DNA of 64,000 nt from Ruditapes philippinarum (Eukaryota). Location of the stretch: assembly GCF_026571515.1 (NCBI RefSeq), contig NW_026856539.1, positions 1-64,000 of the forward strand, in the 5' to 3' direction. The translations under genes and the position numbers were made by a program. Shown here one piece after another: positions 1-35,200 of the stretch. Below the pieces are notes generated by a model. It ran no database searches. It was not told the DNA's origin and saw only the letters and a list, made by a program, of their open reading frames with translations. Positions within the stretch are counted from its first letter, which is position 1. Each line of letters begins with the position of its first letter.

Positions 1-313
1 CCTGACTTGTTTTGTAAAGGTCAAACTATTTCCAAAGGCAATCAAAAATCCAAGCAGACAATGACAGCAGCAAAATCAGTGTATAACTTTCAAGCTAAGA
101 AAGAAATCCCCCATGCGGATCCCTCAGCTATAAAAAGGACAAGAAAAAGAAAAGCTATCACAATTGGTAAAATGAATGAAAACGAATACGGCATCAATGT
201 AGACCACAACGATATTCGAAATCCGGGTTTTAGTATTGCCAATAAAGCTAATATAAGGGACAAGCTGTTAAACTGAGCCTGCAATTTCTTGAAAATAATA
301 TCAAAATGCACAT

Positions 314-821
314 GCTTACATTAAGACACTTATGAGCACCCCACATGATGATTTACCGTATCTAGAAAGTAGTCTAGTAAAAATAAAATATGACCCAGAA
401 CTAATTGCAAAAGTTTTGAATCTTTGTTCATTGAATAGGTCTGGTATATGTATATGTCAGAAAAAAAGTTGCACATATAACTCTGTTAAAGTTATATTAT
501 CATGACGACCCAAATTTGGATGAGACAGAGCCTGTATCCGGAAGCAATGCTGGACTTATCAAACGAGGTACATCTACTAAAAACAGTGCTGAGTTTGAGA
601 TGGAAGGTTCATTGATGGAAGACATATTTTCTATTGACAAATATTTAGTTAATGGAATTGATATTAATTTAAAGTTATACAGAAGCAATCACGCCTTTAC
701 GTGTATGTCAAAAGAACCAACTCCTTATTATAAATTGGTATCGTTAAATGTTGTGTTTAAAGCCTGCAAGGTTAGAGTAGACCCTGGGATATACCTAGCC
801 CATGAAAACAAATGTAGATGA
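314..821 (+). pseudogene. Maverick major capsid protein fragment (double jelly-roll, F54H12.2-like)
   Basis: AYIKTLM at 314-334, then after an AT-rich interruption LYYHDD..SNAGLIKR..EMEGSLMEDIFSIDKYLVNGIDINLKLYRS..YKL..KVRVDPGIYLAH. Matches the recalled MCP pattern AYIETLL..FYKD..N.GL..R..D.F.Q..YL.NGVDI.LKL.RS..KV.V.P....AH. Confidence 0.8.
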
Positions 822-875
822 CCCAACACAATACCCTTTCTACTGATTGACATAGTAAACGTAATAACCTTAAAA

Positions 876-1496
876 ATGGAAGACTGGTGGAAAGAAGAAA
901 GTTTAATTAAGTTTACCAGCCCCTCAATTATTTATATCAACGGACCTACTATGAGTGGATAATCTGTTTTAACTAATTCTGGAAATGCAAATATAGTGTT
1001 CAGTGAACCCCCGGGGAAGATTATTTATTGTTATTCAGAATGGCAACCTCTATTTGATGATATGAAACACTGTATGTTCACTTTGGGGATGTGAACATGA
1101 TATTATGTATCGATGACCTTTTCATGCAAGTGACGCAATCAGAAGATGATGTGCACTTGTTTACTGGACTGAGTCACCATTTGAAGATATCTGTAATATT
1201 TTGACCCCGTCCCTCTATCCCCAGGTCGATTTTCAAAAACTTTAAGCTTACAAGTACAATATTATTTTTTTACTCAAAAATAGAAGAGATAAAAGACAAA
1301 TTGTCACTTTCGCCTCTCAATTACATCCAGGCAAAACTGGTTATTTTCTAGATGCTGATGAGAAATGTGTATCACAGTCTTATGGCTATCTACTTGGAGA
1401 TATATCTGCAAATACTGATCACAAAGGTTCCAGTTAAGAACAAATGTTTTTCCTGGCGAAGTTACAAAACGTTTCCTGCCCTTAGACTATAAATAA
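876..1496 (+). pseudogene. Maverick A32/FtsK-like packaging ATPase, frameshifted
   Basis: Walker A GPTMSG*S (Lys codon position is TAA at 960-962), KIIYCYSEWQPLFD, Walker B ILCIDDL, LFTGLSHHLKISVIF, SKTLSLQ, LKNRRDKRQI, YGYLLGD, LRTNVFPGE. Confidence 0.9.
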
Positions 1497-1540
1497 CATA
1501 TGTAACTTAATTTGATATCATATGTATTTTAGAAGTCATA

Positions 1541-9489: not shown

Positions 9490-9816
9490 CTTGACATGAA
9501 ATTAGCAAAAATACATTCATTCCACGCGATGACAGTCATAAGCAGCGGTGTTTAATAAAAAGGTTCAATGAATACTTTCTATAGATAATATTAATTCTCA
9601 AGTTGAACGTTTCATGTATACAAAAAATAGATCGAAAATAATTCCATAAAAATAACCGTAATTGATGTCGCAGAAATTGTATAATTAGAGTATTGCATAG
9701 AAACATGAACCCTCAGATGTCACAATATCTTTGGTCAATCTGCCTGAATTTAGTGAGTTTTGTATATTTTATATTTAAATAGTGCAGAAATAGAAGAATT
9801 TTTAAGTATACCGTGT

Positions 9817-10375
9817 ATGGCCACACCAATAGACCTGGGGGACCTGGATTGGACAACAGAGCTCATGCAGGTCCAGGAACAACAGCCGCAGGAACCCATG
9901 CAGGTCCAGGGACACCAGCCACAGGAACCCACGCAGTTCCAGGGACAACAGCCGTATGAACCCGTACAGGGTCCCGCAAAGCCACAAACACAGAAACCAA
10001 AATGGGTTGCCCCGGTAGGGCCAGTTTTGCTTAAAAAAGTGGAAGGAGAAAATGTGTCACTCCCATTCCAACAGTAAGTTTTACATATTATTTAAAAAAA
10101 TAAATATTTAAAGTATTCAGTAACAATAATGATGATGATGACGATGATGATGATGATAATAAATTAATCATATTTTTTTACATTTCAGAACAGACAGATT
10201 TGATCATTTAGAAGCAGCGATTAGGGGGAGACCAAAACAATCCTTACCGGAAGAAACTGGGAAAGAAATTAAATTATTAAAGGAGTAAATTAGCAGTATC
10301 ATCCATATGGTTGATGCTTTACAGGTGATGAATGAAAATACCCAGAAAAGGATGAGAGTGCTGGAAGCGATTTAA
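9817..10375 (+). pseudogene. Two-exon Gln/Pro-repeat plus coiled-coil orphan ORF with a premature stop
   Basis: Exon 9817-10073, GTAAGT..TTTCAG intron 10074-10188, in-frame exon 10189-10375 (TDRFDHLEAAI..EIKLLKE*ISSIIHMVDALQVMNENTQKRMRVLEAI*). Exon 1 has four 33-bp QVQGQQPQEP-type repeats. Confidence 0.5.
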
Positions 10376-10457
10376 AGGCGATTAAAAAATAATTAATGTT
10401 TTCAAATCACCTGTAAAGGATCAGCTGTATATTTAATACTTTTCATGTACATATTTA

Positions 10458-11500: not shown

Positions 11501-11821
11501 CAGCGAATTTATCGTTGATTGCTATTGCCTTATAAACAGCTTTTCAGATTTAATTTCAGATATGTTATGTGCGCACGCGTAGCTAATATATATCACGTTG
11601 CCATATATCATTGTTGCGTGCGCACGGTATGCATATCGCGTGCGCGGGCGCATAAATAGCTACCGCATGGCTACATAATAGATAAAGTACGTACGTAGTA
11701 CATGAAAAAATTCGTATGTCCCCTTTATTCCATCGTCTTACTTCTGTCATCGCAAATCTAATATAAGCAAATCATGACATGATTATTTTTATTCATCATC
11801 AGGTGATGCATAAAATATAAT

Positions 11822-14800
11822 TGAGACGCGTCACGACAAAACCAACGTATTGTGTTTGCGACCAGCATGTTCGGTTTGTAGGCGAACAACATCGATCCTG
11901 ATCAGACTGCACGGATGCGAAGGCTGGTCTGGATCCATGCTGGTCGCAAACACATTACTTTGGGTTTGTCGTGACGCGGCTCATATGAAGATGATATAAA
12001 AACAAGTTTTCAACAACGAAACAATCAATACGTAGCTATTTAAATACATGTACAACTTATTTGTATAAAACTCTCTTTTTACTTAAACATTCTCTGAACT
12101 AATTCCATATTCGAGAGATGTTAACAGCTACATGTAATTATCGGGGCCGGTGACATTCCACCATAACACTTTATGCTAGATTTCTTCTATTTTTAACAAC
12201 CTTCTACATTTCCCACTGTTTTTAAACGTATATCTATGATAATATTATATTTTTATATTACGTTTTTTCTTAGTGGTTTTACATCGTCCTCTTTAGGGGT
12301 TTGCCATAACAGTAATACATATCATTAATGCTGGATTTTCTTGCGTTGTTCGTTTGTCACTAAGTGACAGTCGGGCACCAGTTCGGATCTCGTTATATTT
12401 AGACCAGATGTACATGTACCCGTCATCTGGCTGCTTTGTTGGTGTGCGACTATCCCATTAAGTTCTATGTGAAGTATTTCATGTAAAAGACCGCGTTGTC
12501 CGTAAATCTGACGCGGAACTTGCAGGATTCTTTTCATGGAATCGGACCATCGAATAGCATTTCATTAAGAACTTCATCAAAATGAAATAATAAAAATAAC
12601 TGCGATAAACAAATTGAACTGGTAAGGGTAAATCCAATTATCTATGTTTTTCCTCAAATACCAGTAGATTTTATCAATAATTCCGGAAGAAAATACTGTA
12701 TACGATTTATGTTCTTGAGATTTTAGATCTGACAGATAATCTATTTGTCTGTATTTCTTTATATGTAATCATTTGTCTGTATTTCTTTATATGGAATCAA
12801 AGAATTGCTGTGACTTGCGTAACTGTTTCACTAGAGATAAGTTGAATAAATCTTCAACACTAAGCTGACCATTCTAAAGTATATAATTTTGGACAAACGT
12901 AAATTGTATTTCATGAAATTAATTGATGATGTCATGGTTGTTTTTTTTAAGTACTGCAGTTTCAGAACAGTTTGAGATATTGAAGTAAAACAACGTTTAT
13001 ATGATTCCCAATAAATTAAGCAATGTCAAAAACTTTTTCCTCAAATACCAGTAGATTTTATCAATAATTCCGGAAGAAAATACTGTATACGATTTATGTT
13101 CTTGAGATTTTAGATCTGACAGATAATCTATTTGTCTGTATTTCTTTATATGGAATCAGAGAATTGCTGTGACTTGCGTAACTGTTTCACTAGAGATAAG
13201 TTGAATAAATCTTCAACACTAAGCCGACCATTCTAGTGTATAATTTTTGACAAAAGGAAATTGTATTTCATGAAATTAATTGATGATGTCATGTTTTTTT
13301 TAAGTACTGCAGTTTCAGAACAGTTTGAGATATTGAAGTAAAACAACGTTTATATGATTCCCAATAAATTAAGCAATGTCAAAAACTTTCAAAATAGATA
13401 TTTTTCATAAATTATCCTATAACCACCTTTTATTATCATGCTTATTTCAGTGCGGCCTGCCTAACCATTTTGATACATTGATCAAGAATGGTTTAAGTAC
13501 GTACGTATTTACAAATCAAGCAATAAAAATATCAATATGAAAAGATAAGCTTTAATCAAAATAAGATACAGTACACATAAACTAAACTATTGTAGTTCCC
13601 CAACATGAAATTGTATGAAATTCAAGGGGTGGAGTAGAGAAATTGTTCACAAAACAAAATTAAGTGCTTGGCCCGATATTTATTGGAAAACAAAAAAGAA
13701 GTTTTTTTCTCTTCTTTATTTAAAGTTTTCGGCTAGTCCGTATGACTTACACAAAGCAAACATTTGGTTGTGAGCATGATAAGGCGTTGCCAAGTAGTTG
13801 TCCTTAGCAATGGTCAGACAATCAACTTGCATGGTCCTTAGCAATGGTCAGACAATCAACTTGCAAATATAATTAGGTTTGTGGATATTTGGAAAACAAC
13901 TTAATACAAAACTAATGCAACATCAGTAAAAACGAGGTTAAATTTGACCTTTAATCTTATTGATTAAACATGCAATTTAAAATATTCACACTAAAACATT
14001 TGATGCTTATTAAAAGTTCAGCATTATAATACGAAGGAAATTTGAGCCGATTCACGACAAAACCAACACAGTGCGTTTGCGAGCAGCATGGATACAGACT
14101 AGCCGGCGCATCCGCGCAGTCTGATCAGGATCCTTGCTGTTCGCTATCAGTTTCTCTACTTGTAATAGGGTTTGTAGGCGAACAACATCGATCCTGATCA
14201 GACTGCACGGATGCGCAGGCTGGTCTGGATCCATGCTGGTCGCTAACACATTACGTTGGTTTTGTCGTGACGCGGCTCATATGAAGATGATATAAGTTTT
14301 CAACAACGAAACAATCAATACGTAGCTATTTAAATACATGTACAACTTATTTGTATAATATTCTCTTTTTACTTAAACATTCTCTGAACAAATTCCGTAT
14401 TCGAGAGATGTTAACAGCGGGGTCGGTGACATTCCACCATAACACTTTATGATAGATTTCTTCTATTTTTAACAACCTTCTACATTTCCCACTGTTTTTA
14501 AACGTATAATTATGCTTTGTTGGTGTGCGACTATCCCATTAAGTTCAATGTGAAGTATTTCATGTAAAAGACCGCGTTGTCCGTAAATCTGACGCGGAAC
14601 TTGCAGGATTCTTTTCATGGAATCGGACCATCGAATAGCATTTCATTAAGAACTTCATCGAAATGAAATAATAAAAATAACTGCGATAAACAAATTGAAC
14701 TGGTAAGGGTAAATCCAATTATCTATGTTTTTCCTCAAATACCAGTAGATTTTATCAATAATTCCGGAAGAAAATACTGTATACGATTTATGTTCTTGAG

Positions 14801-17800
14801 ATTTTAGATCTGACAGATAATCTATTTGTCTGTATTTCTTTATATGGAATCAGAGAATTGCTGTGACTTGCGTAACTGTTTCACTAGAGATAAGTTGAAT
14901 AAATCTTCAACACTAAGCCGACCATTCTAGTGTATAATTTTTGACAAAAGAAATTGTATTTTCATGAAATTAATTGATGATGTCATGTTTTTTTTAAGTA
15001 CTGCAGTTTCAGAACAGTTTGAGATATTGAAGTAAAACAACGTTTATATGATTCCCAATAAATTAAGCAATGTCAAAAACTTTCAAAATAGAATATTTTT
15101 CATAAATTATCCTATAACCACCTTTTATTATCATGCTTATTCAGTGCGGCCTGCCTAACCATTTTGATACATTGATCAAGAATGGTTTAAGTACGTACGT
15201 ATTTACAAATCAAGCAATAAAAATATCAATATGAAAAGATAAGCTTTAATCAAAATAAGATACAGTACACATAAACTAAACTATTGTAGTTCCCCAACAT
15301 GAAATTGTATGAAATTCAAGGGGTGGAGTAGAGAAATTGTTCACAAAACAAAATTAAGTGCTTGGCCCGATATTTATTGGAAAACAAAAAAGAAGTTTTT
15401 TTCTCTTCTTTATTTAAAGTTTTCGGCTAGTCCGTATGACTTACACAAAGCAAACATTTGGGTTGTGAGCATGATAAGGCGTTGCCAAGTAGTTGTCCTT
15501 AGCAATGGTCAGACAATCAACTTGCATGGTCCTTAGCAATGGTCAGACAATCAACTTGCAAATATAATTAGGTTTGTGGATATTTGGAAAACAACTGAAT
15601 ACAAAACTAATGCAACATCAGTAAAAACGAGGTTAAATTTGACCTTTAATCTTATTGATTAAACATGCAATTTAAAATATTCACACTAAAACATTTGATG
15701 CTTATTAAAAGTTCAGCATTATAATACGAAGGAAATTTGAGCCGATTCACGACAAAACCAACACAGTGCGTTTGCGAGCAGCATGGATACAGACTAGCCG
15801 GCGCATCCGCGCAGTCTGATCAGGATCCTTGCTGTTCGCTATCAGTTTCTCTACTTGTAATAGGGTTTGTAGGCGAACAACATCGATCCTGATCAGACTG
15901 CACGGATGCGCAGGCAGGTCTGGATCCATGCTGGTCGCAAACACATTACGTTGGGTTTGTCGTGACGCGGCTCATATGAAGATGATATAAAAACAAGTTT
16001 TCAACAACGAAACAATCAATACGTAGCTATTTAAATACATGTACAACTTATTTGTATAATACTCTCTTTTTACTTAAACATTCTCTGAACAAATTCCATA
16101 TTCGAGAGATGTTAACAGCTACATGTAATAATCATTCCACCATAACACTTTATGCTAGATTTCTTCTATTTTTAACAACCTTCTACATTTCCCACTGTTT
16201 TTAAACGTATAATTATGATAATATTATATTTTTATATTACGTTTTTTATAGTGGTTTTACAACATCCTCGAGTCGTTAGGGGGTTGCCATAACAGTAATA
16301 CATATCATTAATGCTGGATTTCCTTGCGACAATTTGACAGTCGGGCACCAGTTCTGACCTCGTTATTTTTAGGCCAGATGTCCACGTAGCGGTCATCTGG
16401 CTGCTTAGTTGGTGTGCGACTATCCCGTTTAGTTCAATGTGAAGTATTTCATGCAAAAGACCTCGTAGTTCCTTAATCTTCCAGCGTTCTTTTTATTGCA
16501 ATCGGACCATCGGATAGCATTTCAGTAAAAACTTCATCAAAATGAAATAATAAAAAAAATTTGGATAAACAAAATTGTTTTTCCTCAAAGACCAGTAGAT
16601 TTTGTCAACAGTTCCGAAAGAATATACTGTATACAAGTTATGTTCTTGAGATTTTAGATCTGACAGATAATCTATTTGTCTGTATTTCTTTATATGGAAT
16701 CAGAGAATTGCTGTGACTTGCGTAACTGTTTCACTAGAGATAAGTTGAATAAATCTTCAACACTAAGCCGACCATTCTAGTGTATAATTTTTGACAAAAG
16801 GAAATTGTATTTCATGAAATTAATTGATGATGTCATGTTTTTTTAAGTACTGCAGTTTCAGAACAGTTTGAGATATTGAAGTAAAACAACGTTTATATGA
16901 TTCCCAATAAATTAAGCAATGTCAAAAACTTTCAAAATAGATATTTTTCATAAATTATCCTATAACCACCTTTTATTATCATGCCTATTTCAGTGCGGCC
17001 TGCCTAACCATTTTGATACATTGATCAAGAATGGTTTAAGTACGTACGTATTTACAAATCAAGCAATAAAAATATCAATATGAAAAGATAAGCTTTAATC
17101 AAAATAAGATACAGTACACATAAACTAAAATATTGTAGTTCCCCAACATGAAATTGTATGAAATTCAAGGGGTGGAGTAGAGAAATTGTTCACAAAACAA
17201 AATTAAGTGCTTGGCCCGATATTTATTGGAAAACAAAAAAGAAGTTTTTTCTCTTTCTTTATTTAAAGTTTTCGGCTAGTCCGTATGACTTACACAAAGC
17301 AAACATTTGGTTGTGAGCATGATAAGGCGTTGCCAAGTAGTTGTCCTTAGCAATGGTCAGACAATCAAACTTGCATGGTCCTTAGCAATGGTCAGACAAT
17401 CAACTTGCAAATATAATTAGGTTTGTGGATATTTGGAAAACAACTTAATACAAAACTAATGCAACATCAGTAAAAACGAGGTTAAATTTGACCTTTAATC
17501 TTATTGATTAAACATGCAATTTAAAATATTCACACTAAAACATTTGATGCTTATTAAAAGTTCAGCATTATAATACGAAGGAAATTTGAGCCGATTCACG
17601 ACAAAACCAACACAGTGCGTTTGCGAGCAGCATGGATACAGACTAGCCGGCGCATCCGCGCAGTCTGATCAGGATCCTTGCTGTTCGCTATCAGTTTCTC
17701 TACTTGTAATAGGTTTGTAGGCGAACAACATCGATCCTGATCAGACTGCACGGATGCGCAGGCTTGGTCTGGATCCATGCTGGTCGCTAACACATTACGT

Positions 17801-20800
17801 TGGTTTTGTCGTGACGCGGCTCATATGAAGATGATATAAGTTTTCAACAACGAAACAATCAATACGTAGCTATTTAAATACATGTACAACTTATTTGTAT
17901 AATATTCTCTTTTTACTTAAACATTCTCTGAACAAATTCCGTATTCGAGAGATGTTAACAGCGGGGTCGGTGACATTCCACCATAACACTTTATGATAGA
18001 TTTCTTCTATTTTTAACAACCTTCTACATTTCCCACTGTTTTTAAACGTATAATTATGATAATATTATATTTTTATATTACGTTTTTTATAGTGGTTTTA
18101 CAACATCCTCGAGTCGTTAGGGGGTTGCCATAACAGTAATACATATCATTAATGCTGGATTTCTTTGCGACAATGTGACAGTCGGGCACCAGTTCTGACC
18201 TCGTTATTTTTAGGCCAGATGTCCACGTAGCCGTCATCTGGCTGCTTAGTTGGTGTGCGACTATCCCGTTTAGTTCAATGTGAAGTATTTCATGCAAAAG
18301 ACCTCGTAGTTCCTTAATCTTCCAGCGTTCTTTTTATTGCAATCGGACCATCGGATAGCATTTCAGTAAAAACTTCATCAAAATGAAATAATAAAAAAAA
18401 TTTGGATAAACAAAATTGTTTTTCCTCAAAGACCAGTAGATTTTGTCAACAGTTCCGAAAGAATATACTGTATACAAGTTATGTTCTTGAGATTTTAGAT
18501 CTGACAGATAATCTATTTGTCTGTATTTCTTTATATGGAATCAGAGAATTGCTGTGACTTGCGTAACTGTTTCACTAGAGATAAGTTGAATAAATCTTCA
18601 ACACTAAGCCGACCATTCTAGTGTATAATTTTTGACAAAAGGAAATTGTATTTCATGAAATTAATTGATGATGACATGGTTTTTTTTAAGTACTGCAGTT
18701 TCAGAACAGTTTGAGATATTGAAGTAAAACAACGTTTATATGATTCCCAATAAATTAAGCAATGTCAAAAACTTTCAAAATAGATATTTTTCATAAATTA
18801 TCCTATAACCACCTTTTATTATCATGCTTATTTCAGTGCGGCCTGCCTAACCATTTTGATACATTGATCAAGAATGGTTTAAGTACGTACGTATTTACAA
18901 ATCAAGCAATAAAAATATCAATATGAAAAGATAAGCTTTAATCAAAATAAGATACAGTACACATAAACTAAACTATTGTAGTTCCCCAACATGAAATTGT
19001 ATGAAATTCAAGGGGTGGAGTAGAGAAATTGTTCACAAAACAAAATTAAGTGCTTGGCCCCGATATTTATTGGAAAACAAAAAAGAAGTTTTTTTCTCTT
19101 CTTTATTTAAAGTTTTCGGCTAGTCCGTATGACTTACACAAAGCAAACATTTGGTTGTGAGCATGATAAGGCGTTGCCAAGTAGTTGTCCTTAGCAATGG
19201 TCAGACAATCAACTTGCATGGTCCTTAGCAATGGTCAGACAATCAACTTGCAAATATAATTAGGTTTGTGGATATTTGGAAAACAACTTATACAAAACTA
19301 ATGCAACATCAGTAAAAACGAGGTTAAATTTGACCTTTAATCTTATTGATTAAACATGCAATTTAAAATATTCACACTAAAACATTTGATGCTTATTAAA
19401 AGTTCAGCATTATAATACGAAGGAAATTTGAGCCGATTCACGACAAAACCAACACAGTGCGTTTGCGAGCAGCATGGATACAGACTAGCCGGCGCATCCG
19501 CGCAGTCTGATCAGGATCCTTGCTGTTCGCTATCAGTTTCTCTACTTGTAATAGGGTTTGTAGGCGAACAACATCGATCCTGATCAGACTGCACGGATGC
19601 GCAGGCTGGTCTGGATCCATGCTGGTCGCTAACACATTACGTTGGTTTTGTCGTGACGCGGCTCATATGAAGATGATATAAGTTTTCAACAAAAAAACAA
19701 TCAATACGTAGCTATTTAAATACATGTACAACTTATTTGTATAAATATTCTCTTTTTACTTAAACATTCTCTGAACAAATTCCGTATTCGAGAGATGTTA
19801 ACAGCGGGGTCGGTGACATTCCACCATAACACTTTATGATAGATTTCTTCTATTTTTAACAACCTTCTACATTTCCCACTGTTTTTAAACGTATAATTAT
19901 GATAATATTATATTTTTATATTACGTTTTTTTATAGTGGTTTTACAACATCCTCGAGTCGTTAGGGGGTTGCCATAACAGTAATACATATCATTAATGCT
20001 GGATTTCTTTGCGACAATGTGACAGTCGGGCACCAGTTCTGACCTCGTTATTTTTAGGCCAGATGTCCACGTAGCCGTCATCTGGCTGCTTTGTTGGTGT
20101 GCGACTATCCCGTTTAGTTCAATGTGAAGTATTTCATGCAAAAGACCTCGTAGTTCCTTAATCTTCCAGCGTTCTTTTTATTGCAATCGGACCATCGGAT
20201 AGCATTTCATTAAAAACTTCATCAAAATGAAATAATAAAAAATTTGGATAAACAAAATTGTTTTTCCTCAAAGACCAGTAGATTTTGTCAACAGTTCCGA
20301 AAGAATATACTTTAATACACTTGTTACTATATATAGTAACAAAATTGTCTATGATTTCAACTGATTATGAGTGTCACGTGACCTATTATGAGTTTGCGGC
20401 CCGGGGCCGAGAACTAGTTATCAGCCCGCAGAACATGTGCACGTGCACAAACTGAAACAATGACGTCATATTTTACGTCATCAAACAGTTAACTGTAAAA
20501 GTGAAAGTAGGTTGTCAGCACGAATCGCTTTATTTTTATTATGAGAGCTTAAGCGTATTTAGTACAAACACATTTTTGTTACTATTGAAATTTAAAGAAT
20601 TAATACGACAAATTCATTCCGAAAAAAAATGAAAATAAAACTTGCTTCTTGATTCTACTGCTTTGAACACACAAACAGTAAACATCTCTGTACAGTACAG
20701 AACAGTAGAAGAGAAGACAAGAATTTCAAGGAAAGAACTTCAAAGTCTATTAAATTTTGTTTTGATTTTTTTTTTTAAATGCTACTATTAGATCTACCAA

Positions 20801-22111
20801 GTGTATTAAAGACATTAATACACGTCAGCGTAGGGCCGGAAGGTGATAATCGGTCCTGAATGAATAATGACCCTCGGGCTAAAGCCCTCGGGTCCATTAT
20901 TCATTTTGCGGGCCGATTATCACCTTCCGGCCCTCTCCTGTCGTGTATTAACCTCTTAGTATACAATTTATGTTCTTGAGATTTTAGATCTGACAGATAA
21001 TCTATTTGTCTGTATTTCTTTATATGGAATCAGAGAATTGCTGTGACTTGCGTAACTGTTTCACTAGAGATAAGTTGAATAAATCTTCAACACTAAGCAG
21101 ACCATTCTAGTGTATAATTTTTGACAAAAGGAAATTGTATTTCATGAAATTAATTGATGATGACATGGTTTTTTTTAAGTACTGCAGTTTCAGAACAGTT
21201 TGAGATATTGAAGTAAAACAACGTTTATATGATCCCCAATAAATTAAGCAATGTCAAAAACTTTCAAAATAGATATTTTTCATAAATTATCCTATAACCA
21301 CCTTTTATTATCATGCTTATTTCAGTGCGGCCTGCCTAACCATTTTGATACATTGATCAAGAATGGTTTAAGTACGTACGTATTTACAAATCAAGCAATA
21401 AAAATATCAATATGAAAAGATAAGCTTTAATCAAAATAAGATACGGTACACATAAACTAAAATATTGTAGTTCCCCAACATGAAAATGTATGAAATTCAA
21501 GGGGTGGAGTAGAGAAATTGTTCACAAAACAAAATTAAGTTTTTTTTCTTCTTTATTTACAGTTGTCGGTTAGTCCGTATGACTTATACACAGCAAACAT
21601 TAGGTTGTGAGCATGATAAGGCGTTGCCAAGTAGTTGTCCTTAGCAATGGTCAGAAAATAAACTTGCATGGTCCTTAGCAATGGTCAGACAATCAACTTG
21701 CAAATATAATTAGACAATTTTGTGGATATTTGGAAAACAACTTTAATACAATTAACTAATGCAACATCAGTAAAAACGAGGTTAAAATTTGACCTTTAAT
21801 CTTATTGATTAAACATGCAATTTAAAATATTCTCACTGAAACATTTGATGCTTATTAAAAGTTCAGCATTATAATACGAAGGAAATTTGAGCCGATTCAC
21901 GACAAAACCAACACAGTGCGTTTGCGAGCAGCATGGATACAGACTAGCCGGCGCATCCGCGCAGTCTGATCAGGATCCTTGCTGTTCGCTATCAGTTTCT
22001 CTACTTGTAATAGGGTTTGTGGATCCTGATCAGACTGCGCGGATGCGCAGGCTGGTCTGTATCCATGCTGGTCGCAAACGCACTATGTTGGTTTTGTCGT
22101 GACGCGGCTCA
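11822..22111. repeat. ~1.8-kb macrosatellite: five units delimited by six MITE copies
   Basis: MITEs start at 11822, 14043, 15738, 17587, 19429, 21888 (spacings 2221, 1695, 1849, 1842, 2459). Unit 1 has a ~390-bp internal duplication, unit 2 a deletion near 14513, unit 5 a 647-bp insertion. Confidence 0.95.
20312..20958 (+). mobile_element. Third hairpin-element family (647 bp) inserted in array unit 5, no TSD
   Basis: Empty site TATACT|GTATAC in the other units. Start TTAATACACTTG with its inverse at 20798-20809; hairpin 20815-20951 with loop CCCTCGGGCTAAAGCCCTCGGG; ends CCTCTTA. Confidence 0.9.
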
Positions 22112-22828: not shown

Positions 22829-24538
22829 CTAAATGAGTTCATTTACTAACACGAGCGCCGTTATAATAAACACTGTATGTTGAATGTTTTGTGTACATCT
22901 TGATCCACTATCTTGAATACCTGAAAAAATGTAATTAACCCAAATGTAAAAATAACACAAAAGTATGAAACATAAATAAATTTCATTAAATAATCTAACG
23001 TAATTTACAGAACAGTTCTTTCAGAATGGCATCAATTTTCTAATTGTTTTGTTGAATACGTGTTTTTTTGCTCCTCCAATTGATAAAGCATCGTCTGATA
23101 AAGAATAAATATACTTAAGTGCCAAAGTTAAAAGTTTTTGAACAGAGAAAACATTTTTATTTTATTTTGATCAATATTCAAAAATACCTTCTATTAAAAA
23201 GTAATATGTATTCAAATACAGCAAAAAAAATCAATTTATAATAAAGACACACTGAATGGAATATAAAGTGTTATACCATAAGAGATCCGTTCGTTGCTTT
23301 CTACTGGGAATTCTTTCGAAAAATCTGAAATAAAGCCGAGATGAAAAACGGGTTGCGCAATCTGAATCTTTACTGTTTGTAGTTTTGATATTGAAGTCCC
23401 TGTAACATTGAATAAACTGTTCCAAATTCAAACCTGTACAATCCATTACAAAAATTCAACTTGTTAATGGTTAAAAGTTTTAAAAGGATTTGAAATATTT
23501 GAATATATTATGGCTTAAAAACGAAACAAACTGTTAAATAAGTATATACGGATTCCATGGACGACAGCCTACTGCACACTGCCAACTGCTTACTGACAGT
23601 TTAATTCTCAATCGGAACTGCCTCCGCTAGTATCTTTAATGTCTTTATCGGAAGTCTGACGGAAAGGGCCGAGTAGTTGCGATTGTTTAATTCTATGTAC
23701 TAGTATATGGATTAATCACGAAGTATTCCGAATGTACACGCAAAATCTGCTGAATTAAATTTTACGGAACATAATTGAAAGTAAGTTAAAAAGGAATATT
23801 CTATAATAAAGCCGAATTATTTGTATTTATTTTTGACTTGTCTACGCCCCATCCTTGCACACTGCTTCGGTTATGTTATGAAATGGTTCTACGTGCCTCA
23901 GTACACTTTCAACTTAATAATAAAAAATATGGGCCAAGGAAATAACTCCATATATGGAGACATCGTGTGACAGTTTAGAGCTTTAATTATATCACAGGAG
24001 ACAGTTTTAAGTTATCTTTTGATAGTTAACTTTTATTGTTTCATGTATATCACTTGGTGTTCCAGATTACGAGACATCAGTATAATATCATAACAAAAAT
24101 ATTATTAAGTACAGAACTTTAATCATAATTCTGCTTTTATCAAGTTTTCTCATTCAGAGGCTCTTTCATACCACAATGTGTATTTTTGTGTTAATTCTTA
24201 AATATGATATTAAAAGAGTATTGTTCTTTGAAGACATTGGCACGTAAATGGGCACCTTTAAAATTTCGAACAACATTCTATTTTACAATTTTGCTATATA
24301 ATTTATACATCATGTTTTTTTCCGACTAAATGATCAATCTACAGCAGATAATAATGAGGCAAAGTACTGCAATCATTAGTCAGGATCATTTAAATGTTCA
24401 AAAATGAAAACATTAGCAAAAATACAGGAATTTTTAATTCGGGTTTTCTTGCAGTTTATAAATTGTTTTCTCCGTAACAAGGCAAATATTTTTATACATA
24501 CGGAATATTTACAGGCGTCTCATAATTTTTATTTTGAA

Positions 24539-24589
<51 letters not shown>

Positions 24590-27500
24590 AAAATAAATAA
24601 TAAATAAATATATGTTTGTTCTCATTAGCTTAGAGGTCTCATTATTGTGACCAAGCTTATTTTCATGTGGTGCTAAAATCACTAAGTGTAATTTGTTTCG
24701 TTTTAATTGTAAATAAAAGAGTTCTATAAATAAATATCATAATTTTCTTGTAATTTTGTTTATGTTTGATTTATGTTTGATTAATATTCAACAGTGTCCA
24801 TATTTTAAAAAAATGTCTATAATTTCATCAATTTTAAATCCATGACATCGCTAAGAGTAATTATTAGGGAGATGAAGGTTTTGTAATATTATCAGTTCCA
24901 GAATTTTATTTTGAAAATACATCCGAGGATCCAATTTCGGGCAAGTTCACTGACTATAGGTTGTACACCCCTAATGCACTGTCTCCACGAAGTAACTAAA
25001 TCAAAGCACAGAAGGCGCTGAATTTGTTTGGGTCTCAGAATGTCAGAAAGGTGAAGGTTGTGAGATTATAAACCAATTTGTTTTTGTATAGTGCCACCTG
25101 TGCTTTCCAGTGTTTTAACTGTAGTAAATTGGCTAATTGCAACACTGATTCAATGTTTATTTGTCTTTAAAAAAAATTTAAAAATGAGTGGCCTCAACTA
25201 GGATTTGAACTCGAGACCTCTCGCTTCATAAGCGAGCGTGCAAACCCCCCGGCCATATGAAGTTATATGTTAACGGTCTGAAGAAAACCATATTATTCTA
25301 AATTAGGGTTTGTAACTTATTTTTTCGACGCTAAACACAGATGTAAATAATCATGTAGCATACTACTAAAGCATGAAATATCTATAAAAAATGAAACAAT
25401 ATTAGAAATCTTCGACCATTCGGGAACTACTTTGCTTGAATATTATTTTTTGACAATCTTTACGCATTGATCTCCCCTGAAAAGTTCGGCTTTGTGTTAC
25501 ATATAAAAGGGAAGTAACCGCTTCAAAAAAGATGGCTTACTTTTAGGCATATTTGCAATTAACAGCATTAGGCTCTGAAAATTTCGCTACAAATTATTTT
25601 GTTTGGGTCTGACGAAACCCAAACAAATAAAACTTAAAGATAAACAGTTGTGACAAAAACGAGAATTTATATTTTTGTCGTTAATTTCGTTCCCCGTTAC
25701 AACCGCGACAGAACGAAATAACGACATGCAGAAAATCAGTTCACCATAATTTCAAAGTCTTGGAGATATATCTATATATTTTTGAGCAACCATGTCCTAG
25801 TATATTTTTTGAACAAAACTTTACTTTTTAGCATTACATTGTACATGTATTTTCAAAACGCTAACTTAAAATTGACCGTGGTAATTGGAATGTACAGACA
25901 GCGACGTTCATGGCATAATAAGGCCTCCGGCCTAAAGTCTAAAGTTATAAAGAATCATAATCATTTAAGGAATAAATTTATAATATGCATGTTATATGGA
26001 AAATGTATTAAGATAAGTGTCGTTTGTAAACAGAGATATATTTGTCAGTTTTAATTAATTATTTATTGATAGCTAAAAATTAGAGAACAAGATTTAACAA
26101 GAAAAAGGTAATATTTGGTTTGATAGCAATTTTATAAAGTTTACAGGTCAATGATTTTGGAAAGTTCCCGATGCCAGGCCGATGCTTGCAAAGATTTAGT
26201 AACACGAGAATTATACATGTATAAATGTAACGCATTCCGTGATATTATTGGTCAAAGTCTTCATCTATGATACAGAATAATTCTTTGAACAACACTGTTT
26301 AAAAAGGTCCCTCATTCTAACATATAAACACATTGGAAGAAGGATATAAAATGCTGAGATTTACTTTTAGGCATTTAATCGGGTATTTTGCATTAAGCAG
26401 TTAACAGTAAGCATTAAGCAGTCGATTGTAAGCATTAAGCAGCCGATTGTAAGCATTAATCTGTCGACTGTAAGCATTAAGTAGTAGACTGTAAGCATTA
26501 AGTAGTAGACTGTCGTTTATAGAATTCCGTAAGAATATGACAATTCTATTTCGCTGTATAGCACCAGTATGTAAGTTTTGTACTGCAACGCTGAAAGTAT
26601 GTTGAAAGTTGTTATTAAATGATGCATTTACCATATACAAGCACTGAATCAAAATCTTCGCCGAATGAATTATTGGCATGGCATGAATAGTTTCCAAACT
26701 GACAGTCTCGAATTTTCAGTAACCGCAAACGAAATGTTGTCGTATACCCATCTAGATTCTTCTCAACCTAGAATACAGTGAAAATGAATAACGCGTATGT
26801 CCATAAACATGGATAATAGCAATAGAAACTGAAATATATTGATCATGTTGAAAAAAGTCAGTTATTATTAAAGCTAGTGCTCTGAATGTGTGTTGAAACA
26901 GATCACTTATTACTGACGCTACTGCTGTGTGTTGAAAAACGTCAGTTAATTAAGAGCTCTAACCGTTAACGTTTAAGCTTGTGCTCTTAGTGCTAACAAA
27001 GGTATGTAATCATTTACGCTATAGTGCTTTCAGTGCTAACAAAGGTATGTAATCATTAACGCTATAGTGCTTTCAGTGCTAACAAAGGTATGTAATCATT
27101 TACGCTATAGTGCTCTCAGTGCTAACAAAGGTATGTAATCATTTACGCTATAGTGCTTTCAGTGCTAACAAAGGTATGTAATCATTTACGCTATAGTGCT
27201 TTCAGTGCTAACAAAGGTATGTAATCATTTACGCTATAGTGCTCTTAGTGTAAACAAAGGTATGTAATCATTTACACTATAGTGCTCTCAGTGCTTACAA
27301 ATGTATGTAATCATTTACGCTATAGTGCTTTCAGTGCTAACAAAGGTATGTAATCAATTACGCTATAGTGCTTTCAGTGTTAACAAAGGTATGTAATCAT
27401 TTACGCTATACAATAGTAGTGCTTTAAGTGATGACAATTAAATGTTTGTGTATTTTAACTCTAGTGCTCTTTGTAATGACAAATGTCTGTTATCAGTGAC

Positions 27501-30500
27501 TTAAGTTCTCTAAGTGTATAAAATGTCCGTTATGCCCCGTGTTCAAGTGATCCTGATTTTATTTTCAATGTTTTATGTTACTAAAATTAATTTATTTTGC
27601 TAGAATTAAATTGTATATATTCAAAAATGTAAGATATTGCTGATTTGCAAAGAAACCAACCAAATTTTGGACAAAATCAACACATAACAAAACAAATACA
27701 AAAATATTGGGATCAAAATACGGATCAATTTTAGGATCAGGATCAATATTTTGATCAACTGAAAAATGCCTGTATTTTGCAAAAAATTTATAAAGTTTAT
27801 TCTAAAATTTCATAAACTTGCTATTGCAAGTCATGTTTTATCAATTTAATATAAGATATTTAATCTATGAGGAGAAACAACGAAGAATACTTGTATTTTT
27901 AAATTTGATCCTGATCTTGATCCTGATCCTGTGTGAACTTTGTGAACACGGGGTCAATGTTCTATGTGTTCTATGTGTTTAGAAATATCTGATTTCAGTG
28001 ACGCCAGTGTTCTATGTGTTTACAATTGTCGGTCATTTTTGTGCGATCGATTTTTGTAAACAAGACAGTTCCATCTTGAATAAATGTATATTTCAAAAAG
28101 GACAACACTACCTTGAATGTGTTCTTGTCCAGAGACTGTAATGCTTCATTGTCTTTTTGCCAATACATGTTAGTAGGTGTTCTTGTAAAAATCTCACATT
28201 CCAATATGACGTCACTTCCTTTAATCTGACCAATCATTTTAGCAAGCAATGATACTTTCGGAGCTTCAGTAAGAGTGAGATGATCTGATATTATAAAATG
28301 TTACATATTGTTTTATGTTCATGATAATACAAACATGTAACTTAAATATCACAAGCTTGTTCCCTTTTACGTAATATTTTTTGCAAGAAAAAGTAATAAC
28401 ATTTGATTGTGGAAATAAAAGTAAACAACGTAATCACATTAAAATCTACTGCAAATGCATCATATATTTTCTTGTTTCAAAGACATAAATTATCATTGAA
28501 ATTATTGTAGTTTGTTTTAAATTTATAAGTGTTTTATAAAATTTTAAGAGTTATGTATCACAACTATACCGCCACGTTTTTCTGTACTAGTAGTGCCGTC
28601 TGTACTTGTAACAATATTTGTACGCAAATCTGGAAGAACTTCTGAAAAAGATAATTAAAGAACAAGGACAAAAATAAAAAAGAAGAAAAAACAAAACAAA
28701 GACAAAAAAAGCAACAACAAAAACAACAACAAAGAAAATAGTTCTGATAAAGTGTGAAACTGTATTTCAATGACACATTCTGTTTACAGAGAAAAGATTG
28801 AAATTAAAATGCAGTTGTATGGTTGTATTCATTGTTCCAAATGAAAACGGGAAAAAAACATCACTTATGTCAGTGAACTCTTGTCCCATAATGACTATGT
28901 TTGTATTACAGTATGAAAAGGGATACAACACTGAATTATAGTCAAACAAGTTGAATGTAGCCAAAACCATGTACATGTACTCATTTTAAAAACTCGGTTC
29001 TTCCATGCGTTTTAAGCAGGACCAATTTCAAGACAGTGTGTCAGAAAATTCTTCCAGAAATTCAAATTTTATTAATAAAAGTGCCTGGTGTATTCCCGAT
29101 TTACCCTGTAAAATAATAATCTAGGATCGCACTGCATTTGGACAACATACTCGACCGACACAAAAGTAAGGCTAGAGCTACTTGTGGGTGGGTAGCGGGA
29201 GAGGAAATAAACACTGTTTTATTTTAGGCATAGGACCATTTTCCGTTGGTGCCGTAAATTTCGGTTGTATACATTAATTAGAATGGTATCATATATGACA
29301 CACTTACCATATAAAACAACAGTCTCACAGACCGTGCACACGGAATTTTCAGCGCAGCATTTGTACTCCCCAAACTGACTTCCCCTAACATTTTCTATCT
29401 TTAGTTTTAAAATTACTTCTGGAATATCATAATCCATTGTGTATACCTACAGAAAATATATGTAAATAAATGAAACTGACAATTTTATTTGATTCTTTAT
29501 AATGTTTTACATACTAGTAATTAAACTTTAACAACAAACACCATTGTTTCGTGATAAATAAAAAAGGACTTTTAATTTTGTATTTTTATGGATTCTTATG
29601 TCAATTTTAAGACATATTTGGGCATTTCTCGCCGGTTGATCCACCTAACCGGTTTTCCTGGATAACTAACCTGTAAAATAACCAATTTTTAGCAAGTGAT
29701 CGACTACTTATTCCATTCCACGTGAAATCTGAACTCAGCGTTAAAAAACAAATGAACATTAGACATTATGTCCGAAATATTATAATTGACATACCATGAG
29801 AAATCGTTCATTCCTATATTTCATATGCTCTTGTGGCGGCATGGCCGAGCGATCAACACATCGGACTAGATATCAAGGATTGCTGGCAATCTTAGTTCAA
29901 ATCCCGTCAGGGACAAGACATTGTTTCCGCGAGCAAGAAACAATACACTCATTGCTTAGTTGGTTTCCAAAACGGATTCGAGATTGTTTCAATAAGCTTA
30001 TAGCTTCAGACACTATCGAACTAAAATAAACTGATATAAATAAAATGCTTCTTTGTAAGGAAGTGATAATGCGTATAGCCATTTTCTCTCTGCATACAAA
30101 TGATTATAATGCTTTGGTACGCCGACGACATACTTCCAGAGTTTGCGTTCTGTATTGACAATAGTCTAAACCATACATATAGCTTACACTGGATACGTAC
30201 AAAGGTAACACCAAACACAGCTTTATTTGCCTTAAATTATTACGTTATAGTATTCCCTGGTGAAGAATTCTAAAGTAACATTATCCTTCAGCCAGTATAC
30301 ATCTTCCTGAGCGGCCTCGGTGACTTCGCATTCTAGTACAACATCATGCCCTAGATACTGTCCAATACGCCGTGCCATAGGTGTAATTCTTGGTATTGCT
30401 GTAAAAATATAGTCATAACTATCAGTCACGTGGTTTGTTCCCGGAACAGAATACTTTAGTACTTAAACAGGTTTTATGGCTATTTGAACAGGTTTTTTTA

Positions 30501-32263
30501 CCATTAAAGGGTGTTAAAATAAACTGATCTGCTGCAGATTAGTTACAATAAATAACTGAACCAATTTAGGGGAGGAATAAATCTTTAATAGATATAATAA
30601 ACTTTATTATGTATATTACCTGTAAAGTTGGTATTCGAACCATTGATGGCCCAAGCACACGCATCAGACTCTACATTTGCATCAACAGCTGTTGATAGAA
30701 GAAAATATCATTTTTAAAAATATGAAATTATTGTCTGTAATTTTGAATTCTAAATATGAATAAACAGACATTTTCCAAGTAATTTTTTTTGTATCAAGCT
30801 TAATTCTCCACTGTTTAAATATTTAGATACGTACAATTCATTGAAAGGCTGACTTTATCTGTCAGTGTTTTACAATTTGATACATTTAAAAATTACTGAA
30901 TTAATTAATCATGTCTCATGGATAGAGTTGGGTCATTTGGGATGAAAAATTAAACAAACAGTTCCACTTTGCTACCGGAAGCGACACATCTCTTTGTTCA
31001 TAATAAAGCTCATAATCCAATGTGAACATCTCGGATATTATAAATAACTGTTCTTATCCGAAAGGGCCGAGAAGATGCGATTGGCTCATAAATAAGTGAC
31101 CCCAAGAAATGTTTATCATACATCTTTTGATTTAATGAAAGACAATTCCTCGCTCCACATGTATATAAGGATATATACATAATAACAACTTACCATAAAT
31201 GTGCACCGACTCAGACCTGTTACCAGCTGAGTTCTCGGCAACACACGTAAACACTCCGAGCTGTTCTTGCTGTAGGTAAGACAGTGACAGACTTAACGTA
31301 GACAACGTGTTATCTGAATATCCCTGAAACATTCCCACCTAGAAATACAGATTAAATACCCTGATATAGAACTTGATATATGTATCCTGATACATTCTAA
31401 AATTGCATTTTTAATTTTAAAATATTGATAAAATTGTAACAAAATATAGTGACACCGCAATGTCGAAGAAAGGAAACATTACAATTAACTTCCTTCTCAA
31501 GCTGTTAATACTAAATGCAGCAGACATACCAATCTTACGTTTCATTCTGTTCCTTCAAAAAAAAGTCGATAGGCAAAATTCTGAACAGAAAAAGAATTAA
31601 TACGTTTGAAGGAAAGGTAAATATTGAGAAAAAATGAAAATTTACAATACGTCTACATATCTACAACACAAATCTACCAACACTTGTAACGACGTTGGTA
31701 GAACGTCATAATACTGATAATGAGCATAATAATATGCAAAAAAACTAAAGTTGGTGAATTAACATAGGGGAATGTTTCCCATATATAAAGACACAAACCG
31801 CTCTTGGTGGTGAGCTAGCTTTTCACCGACAGGGTTTGTGTGCCTTAAACATGTTAAAACGTTACACTCTTTCGTCAAGAGAGTCAAGTGATTTTATACC
31901 GAGTGTTAGCCTGCCACTTGGTGGATTTTTAATAACTTGTACACATATCGTAATTAAATATTAAAAAGATAAAAAAAAATATGTTAATATGCACCCTATT
32001 GCAAAAATCTTAATCAAACCTTATACAATTCTTCATTGGCAGATTCTAGAGTATCGTTGTCCTTTAACCAATATATAGTTGGTGTTGGAATGGAAAAAAT
32101 CCTACATTCCAAATATATCTTGCCTCCGATAGTGTGCCCTATTTCTTTTACTCTCAAATTTATTTCAGGCGCAACTGAAAAGAAAAAGTGATCGTTTAGT
32201 TGTTATTGAAGTACTTATACTGTATAATCATCACCATCATCGTCATAACTGCTGTCGTCGTCG

Positions 32264-32296
<33 letters not shown>

Positions 32297-35200
32297 CCAC
32301 CACCACCACCACCATCACCACCAACATCATCATCATCATTATTTAAAGAATATGAGATAGAACTATTGAGTTAAAACTATTTAGTTACTAAACATGTAAA
32401 CTTGTCAGTACTTACATATAACTGTAACTTTTATTTGCATGAAGGCAGTTAACGGATTTCTAGCATAGCAGTAGTACACCCCTCCGTCTTCTCTTGTTAC
32501 GTTGACAATGTTCATTGTCTCTCCTTTCATACCTGAAATATGTTTTTCTCAATATTGAACAACTGTCTACATCTCATTTAACGTGCCATTTTTTGAAATG
32601 TACTACATTTTATATTCAAATGGAATAAACTAGGTCCTTAATTAGTAAGGCTAAGCTATATCTATATACATATATGAAAGAAACAAATGCATGTAGATAT
32701 ACGTACAGTGCCATTAAATAATACCGAGTAGCAGGTTTAGTACTTGTGTGAAAAGTTATGTTGAAATATCTGAATTGCGCCTGTGCCCTTGATCACTGAA
32801 AATGTTAGCAGCATACAAATAGATTAGCAGATTTAATGAATGAAAATTGTAGCTTAAATGTTAGGAGAGGGGATGGCAGTATTCAGAGATAGATAGATAA
32901 ATGTAATGATATGAGATAATCCTTGTCTGTTAGTTGCTGTTTGATATCATATATATGTATAAACATATCGGACGAATAAGTAAGAGGCAGCACATTCATT
33001 TCCTGTCTTCTTTCTCATTTCATATTGACAACCAGAACTTAAATAGGCTAACAATGTTCATAAAACAAACCATTTATAAACAAGTTTTAAAAGAGGCACT
33101 ATTATGTTGGTAACTTTTATTGGAATTGAAGATTGTAGACACATACTTGGTAACGACCACGTGGATCCCTTTACCCATTCTATGTTTGGCTCAGGAATAC
33201 CTAATGCTTTACAAGTCAGTGTTAATGTTTCGCCTTCCCTCAGAGTAGTGTCGTGACTTGAAACATCCTTTCGTATTTTAGCAGGAACTGCGGTAAAATA
33301 GAATAGGAATATACTTGTAATATTGTATGTACATAATTTTCAGATTATGGCCAGCAACTTGACTTCCATGTAGATCGACATGGTCATATCATTCAAATTA
33401 TGTTCACGCATGTGTGTCACATGTTGGCCGGTCAGTCCATCTTGCCGGCTTTACTTGTTAACTAACTAAGTTATTACCATTATCCCCCAGATGATTTCTA
33501 AATAAATTAATTGTGAGAGACAAATGACTATTTCATTCGATGTCCGAGATCAATTGCCACGGAGCAATTCCGCCACGTCCGAGGATCGAAACAGCGACCC
33601 CTGGTCTATTGATCTGATACTCTCCCTATAATGTCGAAGTATTGTCGCTTGAAAGCATGGAATTACATGTTTATATGTGACATCTTAATACTAACAGAAT
33701 ATGGCCATGCTATGACAATTAATCAGTATAAGATAATGTATTATGATAATTTTTAACCATGGCAGGATTCATGATCGAAATATTTCAAGATATCTCAAAA
33801 TAAGATAACAATATTGAAACCTTCACGTGTTAATAAGATCAAGTTCATTGACGAAAGATCAAAAATACTTGATAAAACTGGCCACTTTATCTGGAATATT
33901 TATTTGATTTAAGACAGTTCATTTAATTTTTTAATGAGCATATGTAATAGAACATAAATATAACCGACACATCAAGGGTTTTACAGTATATACCTATAAT
34001 ATTTAGAGTGACATGTTTAGAGATTGGAGGATCTGTGTTTATACGACAGATGTACTGTCCCCTGTCCCTGTAAGTTACATTGCTTATATGCAAATTCCAC
34101 CACCCTTCGTTTGGGCGCTCCACGGTATATCTAGTGTCGTCTGTAAAAAGTTGTTGGTCTATTGCTAACAGACGGGTTTCATTTCGCAACCATCCAACCT
34201 AGTAAATAAAAAATACCAACTTTATACTTTTTTCCTGAAATGTTACCTTACTCATGGCCGATAAAGAAAGTATAGGGCATAGAAGATAAATGATTTAATC
34301 AGTGCATTAAAAATACTTCCTACGAAATATTTTTTGTTGACAAAAATGCTATATTCGAGTAGCTTATGAAGTTGAGTTTGTAATTTCATTTCTTGGCCTA
34401 CAATGAAAATGCATTATTGGCTGAATAAGTCATTTTTTATGTTGTTGTTTTGTAAGTTTCAATTGTTTTGTCTTAGTTTGCACCTCGTACAAATGTGTTG
34501 AGCTTATTCTAAAACTGGTATCCATCTCTAAATGTTTTTAGAAAACTATTTGAGTAAGTAAACGTGTCTGATGTCTGCTTCAAATTGTAACGAGCTATAT
34601 TTGGTTGCGTGATTCCTCATATTGTACTAGTGCTGCTTAATTCCAGGAAGCAGACTAGCAACTGGTAAAAATGAGCCTAAAACTTGTAACACAACTAAAC
34701 TAAAATGAATATGATAAAAGTAAGTATTTTGATTGTAATTAAGTATACAATGGTATACTATTTGCGCTTTCCTTCGTTAATCACTCTATCCAGTAAGCTG
34801 TATTACAATAGAATCCCGAAATAAGTTCTTCAACATATTTAAGGCAACATAAACAAATAGTAACAGAATATACATGGTCACGTGGATGAAATGTACGAAT
34901 CATGATCAACATAAACATTGTACAAACCTTGTATTTGCCCAAACCTTCTATGTAACACTCTAAGATCGCTGTTTCACCAACAACAAAGGTTACATTAGCA
35001 TCGTTTCCATTAATAACCGGCTTTGCAGTGTTTATATCTGGATATAAGAAGAAGTTATGTTTCTTACACTCTGATGTGACGCTGATAAGTGAAACAATGT
35101 CATAAATCTCAAAAGCTCAAAAATAGATATTATTAAATCTTTTACATGAAGCCTAGCGTATGCATATTGTTATTCTCTCAACAACTCAATAGTAAGGGAG

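Follow-up and report, generated by a model that had tools for sequence, protein, structure and literature searches.

Does the tandem array near the start of contig NW_026856539.1 of Ruditapes philippinarum (assembly GCF_026571515.1) hide a piece of coding sequence? The window, the first 64,000 nucleotides of that contig, contains a 1.8-kb piece in five tandem units of ~1.45–2.2 kb each, bounded by MITEs (miniature inverted-repeat transposable elements) at 11817-11986 and 21885-22111 and with one MITE per junction. The units carry a short core, 44 codons long on the minus strand where complete, that occurs in two types, A and B. We judge the core to be genuine but unremarkable: a decayed piece of coding sequence, its parent not found, within a MITE-mediated tandem duplication. 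Taken whole, as a dead minus-strand remnant in a crossover-made array, we rate this explanation just above the halfway mark; a coding origin on the minus strand, taken by itself, stands slightly higher, and a coding origin on one strand or the other is probable.

The type A core of unit 1 occupies 12364-12495 (−), comprising 44 codons (RGLL...PDCH; GC-content 45%) within a 78-codon stop-to-stop frame at 12328-12561. The type B core of unit 5 lies at 20019-20150 (−), with 44 codons in an 89-codon stop-to-stop frame at 19911-20177 (GC-content 48%). The original prediction had counted 12 differences between the two, 11 of them at third positions and 9 synonymous, and an exact recount (12495-12364 (−) against 20150-20019 (−)) gave the same figures. 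Over the 132 bases the differences were distributed 0/1/11 among the three codon positions. According to Nei–Gojobori counts (NG86) in the minus frame, the proportions of synonymous and nonsynonymous differences were pS = 9/30.5 = 0.295 and pN = 3/101.5 = 0.030, with a dN/dS of 0.08 (Fisher's test, p = 7 × 10−5).

The bias persisted on formal alignment. In the untrimmed gap-free block 12359-12507, a single phase class took 13 of the 18 differences (best class, p = 0.0027), and a scan across all 40 differences of the divergent zone surrounding the core yielded p = 0.0009. When the 12 substitutions were moved to random same-base sites, at least nine synonymous changes in the best of six frames arose at a frequency of 0.00055 (20,000 trials). 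Among 69 duplicate-pair alignments in the window, which are not mutually independent, three had a scan p < 0.01, all of them A versus B; the next lowest value was 0.13. Nonsynonymous core sites were also less diverged than the neighbouring blocks (3/102 vs. 22/207, p = 0.004), a deficit of replacement changes that purifying selection explains.

Base composition bears on the strand. The core has a GC-content of 45–48%; the unit outside it has 30%, and 16 exons from the window have 41%. A level of 45.5% was reached by 14 of 359 other 132-bp segments, several of them MITEs. In the minus frame, GC at first minus second codon positions (GC1−GC2) was +0.16, and the minus-minus-plus log-odds were +0.06 to +0.10 bits per codon; true exon chunks averaged +0.08 bits per codon, with 21 of 25 positive. 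A plus frame would need GC1−GC2 of −0.16, as low as in none of the 25 exon chunks, and its composition values were matched by at most one of them. This position-specific composition favours the minus strand.

Synonymy alone cannot settle the strand, as the plus frame is also mostly synonymous (10 of 12 differences, dN/dS 0.045). The original prediction had set this frame aside for its TGA stops; two shared TGA codons are indeed present, and the 10 of 12 had gone unremarked. It would allow 12371-12469 (+) to be, or to have been, a 33-codon hydrophobic exon (SGTS...VIWLL[CS]WCATIP[LF]SSM) that ends at a TGA common to A and B, with 8 of 10 differences synonymous and the indels placed in introns. 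Such an exon would be preceded by a pyrimidine-rich stretch and CAG, with a 13-bp indel upstream of the CAG, and its codon-usage score is slightly above that of the minus frame. Three sites discriminate between the strands: two of them, at codons 28 and 33, speak for plus, and one, at codon 12, for minus. The shared TGA closes the frame, yet the bias goes on beyond it (12484, 12493, 12502), and the GC1−GC2 value is unlike that of real exons. The plus peptide also lacked matches in the word search (0 of 7 candidates), in Pfam and PDB, in the protein atlas (best 0.81), and in metagenome (0 of 187) and viral (0 of 69) candidate stretches; its one prokaryote match (1 of 51 candidates, 15 residues) was rejected as chance. 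Read with TGA as Trp (code 4), the plus frame extends to 67 residues and gave no match. We consider a plus-strand exon improbable.

Several observations weigh against a coding remnant altogether. Divergence at the synonymous sites is roughly threefold that of the adjacent, presumably noncoding blocks (0.30 vs. 0.106, p = 0.003). Purifying selection alone cannot produce this silent-site excess, which calls for flanks partly homogenised through exchange among the units or themselves under constraint. The periodicity does not clearly continue into the blocks adjoining the core. Compared with shuffled sequence, the minus-frame composition did not reach significance (p = 0.13 and 0.23), and the codon usage of the core is intermediate between exons and noncoding DNA. 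Language-model recognition reached 1227, below the 2300 attained by 91 of 100 family proteins, and a HMMER search of 1.84 billion representatives with the minus peptide of type B (P0002), the only frame and type that this search covered, returned no parent or homologue. The finding was, moreover, chosen from a very large scan, in which p near 0.001 is not rare overall.

These points lend weight to plain chance: the core would be noncoding DNA of an ordinary kind within an old haplotype block, 11 of its 12 differences would share one phase through luck, and the scan would then have selected them. The whole-core divergence of 12/132 (9%) equals that of the neighbours (22/207, 10.6%), no search found a homologue, neither convincing splice sites by eye nor RNA joints were seen, and the structure model of the minus peptide had a mean predicted local distance difference test (pLDDT) of 39, which, being based on a shallow alignment, counts weakly here and is unusable for the fold. 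Against luck stand the local p-values of 0.0009–0.003, in a set where none of the other 66 alignments fell below 0.13, and the coincidence of the GC island and the exon-like GC1 > GC2 on the same frame. Chance is possible, if rather unlikely.

Further searches with P0002 were equally negative. Of the two HMMER matches, one was a tandem-repeat protein of 68 residues and the other a receptor-L repeat protein; their best pair scores were 26–30 bits, and both were dismissed as repeat-summed chance. The word search of longer proteins retained none of 11 candidates, the protein atlas gave no usable match and phage genomes none, and no true match emerged among viral (0 of 9), metagenome (0 of 600) and prokaryote (0 of 85) candidate stretches or in PDB at E < 0.5. 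Pfam, applied to 123 frames within 1-26000 (chosen from 180, plus three read-throughs), gave no match over a curated cut-off; PHROGs and NCBIfam gave no significant match, and the eight sub-threshold hairpin matches in Rfam all lay off the core. Translated comparisons (tblastx/tblastn) detected no core paralog elsewhere in the window. The original prediction had staked itself both on the bias surviving formal alignment, as it did, and on the existence of a homologous open reading frame (ORF); the second stake is partly lost, since none was found in database and within-window searches. That the core might be the last exon of the adjacent immunoglobulin (Ig) gene was considered and rejected, as that gene has its own likely final exon at ~22920-22830.

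The loose resemblance to an OTU cysteine-protease domain that had been proposed did not hold. By eye, a motif order can be traced (QIYG...H; M..TW....L.I; YY..GN), and a CKFR stretch lies upstream, in another frame of type A. However, an 11-sequence OTU profile, built from 7 viral loci (of 13 found via a short motif) and 4 database proteins, scored the peptides P0001 and P0002 at −0.4 and −1.0 bits, in line with the medians (−0.6 and −0.7) from ~1000 shuffles of each. Its best local match was in a different register, and no core frame ranked in the top 25 of 1704 six-frame chunks. Profile–profile comparison with hhalign returned a probability of 0.8%, and Pfam gave no OTU match (PF02338) at E ≤ 10. 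The tools themselves performed as they should: all four viral loci tested were confirmed as Pfam OTU, and a seven-sequence OTU alignment found 19 solved OTU sequences. None of the six reading frames of the cores contains the catalytic Cys loop DGNC, invariant in all seven OTUs compared, and in place of the catalytic His motif HY near the C-terminus the core has GNPL. At the sensitivity of these comparisons, a degenerate OTU domain is thus highly improbable. HEILH, present in all five cores, fits HExxH, the zincin metallopeptidase motif; no peptidase profile matched in Pfam, PHROGs or NCBIfam.

Whatever the parent was, its frame is now disabled. The lesions include 13-bp and net 10-bp indels beside the core, a stop in B, and a deletion of ~185–195 bp in unit 2 that takes codons 22-44; the frame is broken by different indels and stops in A and B. 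In unit 4, a single stop interrupts the 155 codons of the minus frame at 18076-18540. Of the younger changes, those within a type, 1 is synonymous and 3 are nonsynonymous, compared to 9:3 between A and B (Fisher's test, p = 0.12). Since A and B are broken differently and the younger changes look relaxed, the parent ORF would since have died. The original prediction had allowed that the core was, or still is, a constrained small protein or exon with frameshifted edges. The past tense is the best reading; present constraint is unsupported, given the broken frames, the half-deleted unit 2, the three nonsynonymous among four young changes and the near-nil reads.

Reads and contigs were mapped once, to unit 4, at a likeness of at least 80%. 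In X21 (RNA, ~4% of the run, 65 reads mapped), core depth was ~1 per direction, with about two type A reads in opposite orientation. No read of X23 (RNA, ~6% of the run, 5 reads mapped) lay over the core, X1 (contigs, RNA by guess) covered 18936-19395 and not the core, and no splice joints were listed in the RNA mapped to unit 4. With no control stretch mapped and tissues unrecorded, the near-nil core reads are weak evidence of silence.

Two side observations concern other parts of the units. At 18936-19395 of unit 4 and its equivalents, in the non-core half, the X1 contigs are continuous (depth 6–33, 99% identical) and could represent a transcript or an extended 3′ end. At 13450-13495 (+) and its equivalents in every unit, 46 bases run from a pyrimidine-rich CAG to GTACGT, with phase 0 open (CGLPNHFDTLIKNGL). 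By eye the stretch resembles a micro-exon; the mapped RNA showed no joint there.

Type A might instead be alive, encoding a 70-residue peptide from the ATG at 12537 (MKRILQ...KIQH) in an unsampled tissue or stage, with A and B as old allelic classes. Unit 1 does run unbroken from ATG to stop over the core, the two X21 reads over it are of type A, and a divergence peak on the core is the pattern described around selected sites under gene conversion (PMC3924837). However, B lacks an in-frame start ahead of the core and has a different end, unit 2 is truncated, the two reads are oppositely oriented, X23 and X1 lack core coverage, and most A/B differences are silent rather than adaptive-looking. 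A live small ORF of this kind seems quite unlikely. Just as unlikely is its bolder form, an orphan small-protein gene whose two ancient allelic classes (differing at ~30% of synonymous sites and 3 amino acids in 44) were captured in cis by MITE crossover, fixing heterozygosity, with A still encoding its 70-residue HExxH peptide in an unsampled tissue. If true, it would be an unannotated gene with ancient alleles joined by transposon recombination, and would offer a testable way for haplotype divergence in bivalves to give rise to new gene families.

The dead remnant remains our preferred reading, and the array around it probably records how it was copied. Unit 1 (11987-14039, type A) contains an internal duplication, 12647-13033/13034-13389. 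In unit 2 (14283-15734), the type A core is truncated to codons 1-21 (14576-14514). Units 3 (15978-17583) and 4 (17827-19425) carry type B cores at 16334-16465 (−) and 18175-18306 (−), and unit 5 (19669-21884), also of type B, is interrupted by a MITE-like insertion of 649 bp at 20310-20958 with nested inverted repeats (20310-20341/20780-20811 and 20809-20856/20910-20957). The array therefore had been assigned its types correctly, A in units 1–2 and B in units 3–5, with the caveat of the half-lost core in unit 2; its end at 21884 lies beyond the limit of 20150 given before.

The units are less uniform than had been thought. Rather than near-identity outside a core of ~300 bp, we measured a zone of high A/B divergence of ~430 bp (12270-12700), with 10–13% differences and several indels, flanked by 4–5% to the left and 0–7% to the right, and further differences elsewhere. 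Per bin, units 1 and 5 differed at 6/136 and 7/143 sites on the left, at 14/132, 16/138 and 12/117 in the core zone, and at 0–9 on the right. Units 2–4 are mosaics that, right of the core zone, match the second copy of unit 1 almost exactly; unit 5 departs from units 1–4 there (9/126 differences in one bin).

The contigs of run X15, whose kind is unrecorded, bear on these types and can show presence only, as contigs lose rare variants. Among those listed along the unit were type A contigs with the private variants of unit 1 (depth 41–51) and type B contigs with those of unit 5 (depth 27–31); the unit 3/4 base at 18366 was absent among the listed variants. Both parental types thus exist in X15, taken as a DNA run. 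Among the pieces listed, at a likeness of at least 80%, it gave no sign of additional high-copy core relatives. One unit-5-like contig carries just 41 extra letters across the region of the 20310-20958 insertion.

The MITEs would explain the tandem arrangement. The right half of the internally deleted left-flank MITE (11817-11986, +) matches the right halves of the junction MITEs, and the left half of the right-flank MITE (21885-22111, +) matches their left halves. All four junction MITEs, at 14040-14282, 15735-15977, 17584-17826 and 19426-19668 (all +), are such chimeras. On alignment, their left halves were identical to the right-flank MITE, save one 1-base gap in the third, and their right halves bear the diagnostic bases of the left-flank MITE, with the switch near a shared GGTTTG. 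Chimeric junction MITEs are the likely trace of unequal crossover between two flanking copies. With same-direction repeats at both array ends and chimeras at four of four junctions, two features of a duplication by non-allelic homologous recombination (NAHR) are present, and MITE-mediated unequal crossover very probably made the array.

The same elements may date the split. The junction MITE halves have 0–4 differences from their flanking parents, while the cores are 10–13% apart, so the A/B split is most simply, and most likely, older than the array, a pattern that conversion of the MITE halves could also produce. The course of events would then begin with a single-copy 1.6-kb segment between two MITEs, present in two old versions. 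Two haplotypes are the simplest case; a pair of older paralogs, or conversion from a donor, would leave an identical picture. Crossover of the right MITE of one version with the left MITE of the other would have put A and B in tandem, and more unequal exchange would have yielded the mosaic units 2–4. The synonymous divergence would have accrued under purifying selection while the parent ORF, a piece of a host gene or a transposon or viral ORF, still worked; presumably it has no product now.

To the left of the array is a decayed stretch, and to its right the 3′ end of an Ig gene on the minus strand. The likely last exon of this gene, with what we take to be a hydrophobic, glycosylphosphatidylinositol (GPI)-signal-like tail, ends near 22830, which places the array outside the coding part. 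Beyond the Ig-domain genes, which are spliced, the AT-rich window encodes a sodium/bile-acid symporter, PAN and C-type lectin domains, and a kinase. Divergently oriented paralogous genes with three Ig domains, presumably lachesin-like, occupy 22830-35116 (−) and 41372-44878 (+). In the minus copy, the third Ig module exists in two alternative forms (32187-31192 and 28264-26630), which hints at duplication or alternative splicing of the C-terminal part; an intron of this copy holds a 43-bp minisatellite of ten copies at 26981-27410. Decayed frames at 1-1500 (+), with an ORF at 435-818, had one 23-residue viral-contig match (E = 2 × 10−4 among candidates) and none in Pfam, NCBIfam or PDB; we assume a resemblance to a Polinton/Maverick-type major capsid gene. 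At 9757-10390 (+), a Gln/Pro-rich frame of 106 codons with a 33-bp repeat ends in a GTAAGT donor and is followed by an exon-like, stop-broken coiled-coil stretch; it had no family match. An intronless protein kinase ORF of 313 codons lies at 56294-57238 (−) (PF00069, E = 2.5 × 10−52).

On the best reading, the locus matters little in itself. It is a clean small case of MITE-mediated tandem duplication, in which the recognition of the internal MITEs as left/right chimeras of the flanking ones is new in this analysis; comparing repeat units can reveal fossil coding sequence unseen by databases. Tandem duplication by NAHR between repeats is an established mechanism, and the array resembles its usual products in the same-direction repeats at both ends, the chimeric repeat at every junction and the mosaic inner units; it differs in being small (a 1.6-kb segment, 240-bp MITEs) and in having parental units 4–13% apart. 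Pseudogene or transposon-ORF fragments that keep a historical dN/dS signature are likewise established. The core is like them in its dN/dS of 0.08 between old versions, frame-breaking indels, relaxed young changes and near-nil reads, and unlike them in having no identified parent gene, only 44 codons, and synonymous divergence above that of the flanks.

Other parallels come from the literature. Divergence peaks in duplicates under gene conversion have been described, for example in exon 5 of the red/green opsins, in a paper that also notes that substitutions and large indels alone can stop conversion (PMC3924837). The array shares with opsin exon 5 a short stretch of high divergence between low flanks; in contrast to it, the core has no known functional gene or adaptive replacement. 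Extensive haplotype divergence, tied to transposons and young low-expressed genes, is reported to be common across bivalves (bioRxiv 10.1101/2024.09.09.611967) and would supply A and B; the regions concerned there are unalignable, whereas A and B align at 87–96% and sit in cis. Finally, bivalve tandem repeats have been associated with MITEs and Helentrons (PMC3879986, PMC7492417). The present array is similarly tied to non-autonomous elements; in those reports the repeats lie inside the element, whereas here the MITEs form the junctions between 1.6-kb units.

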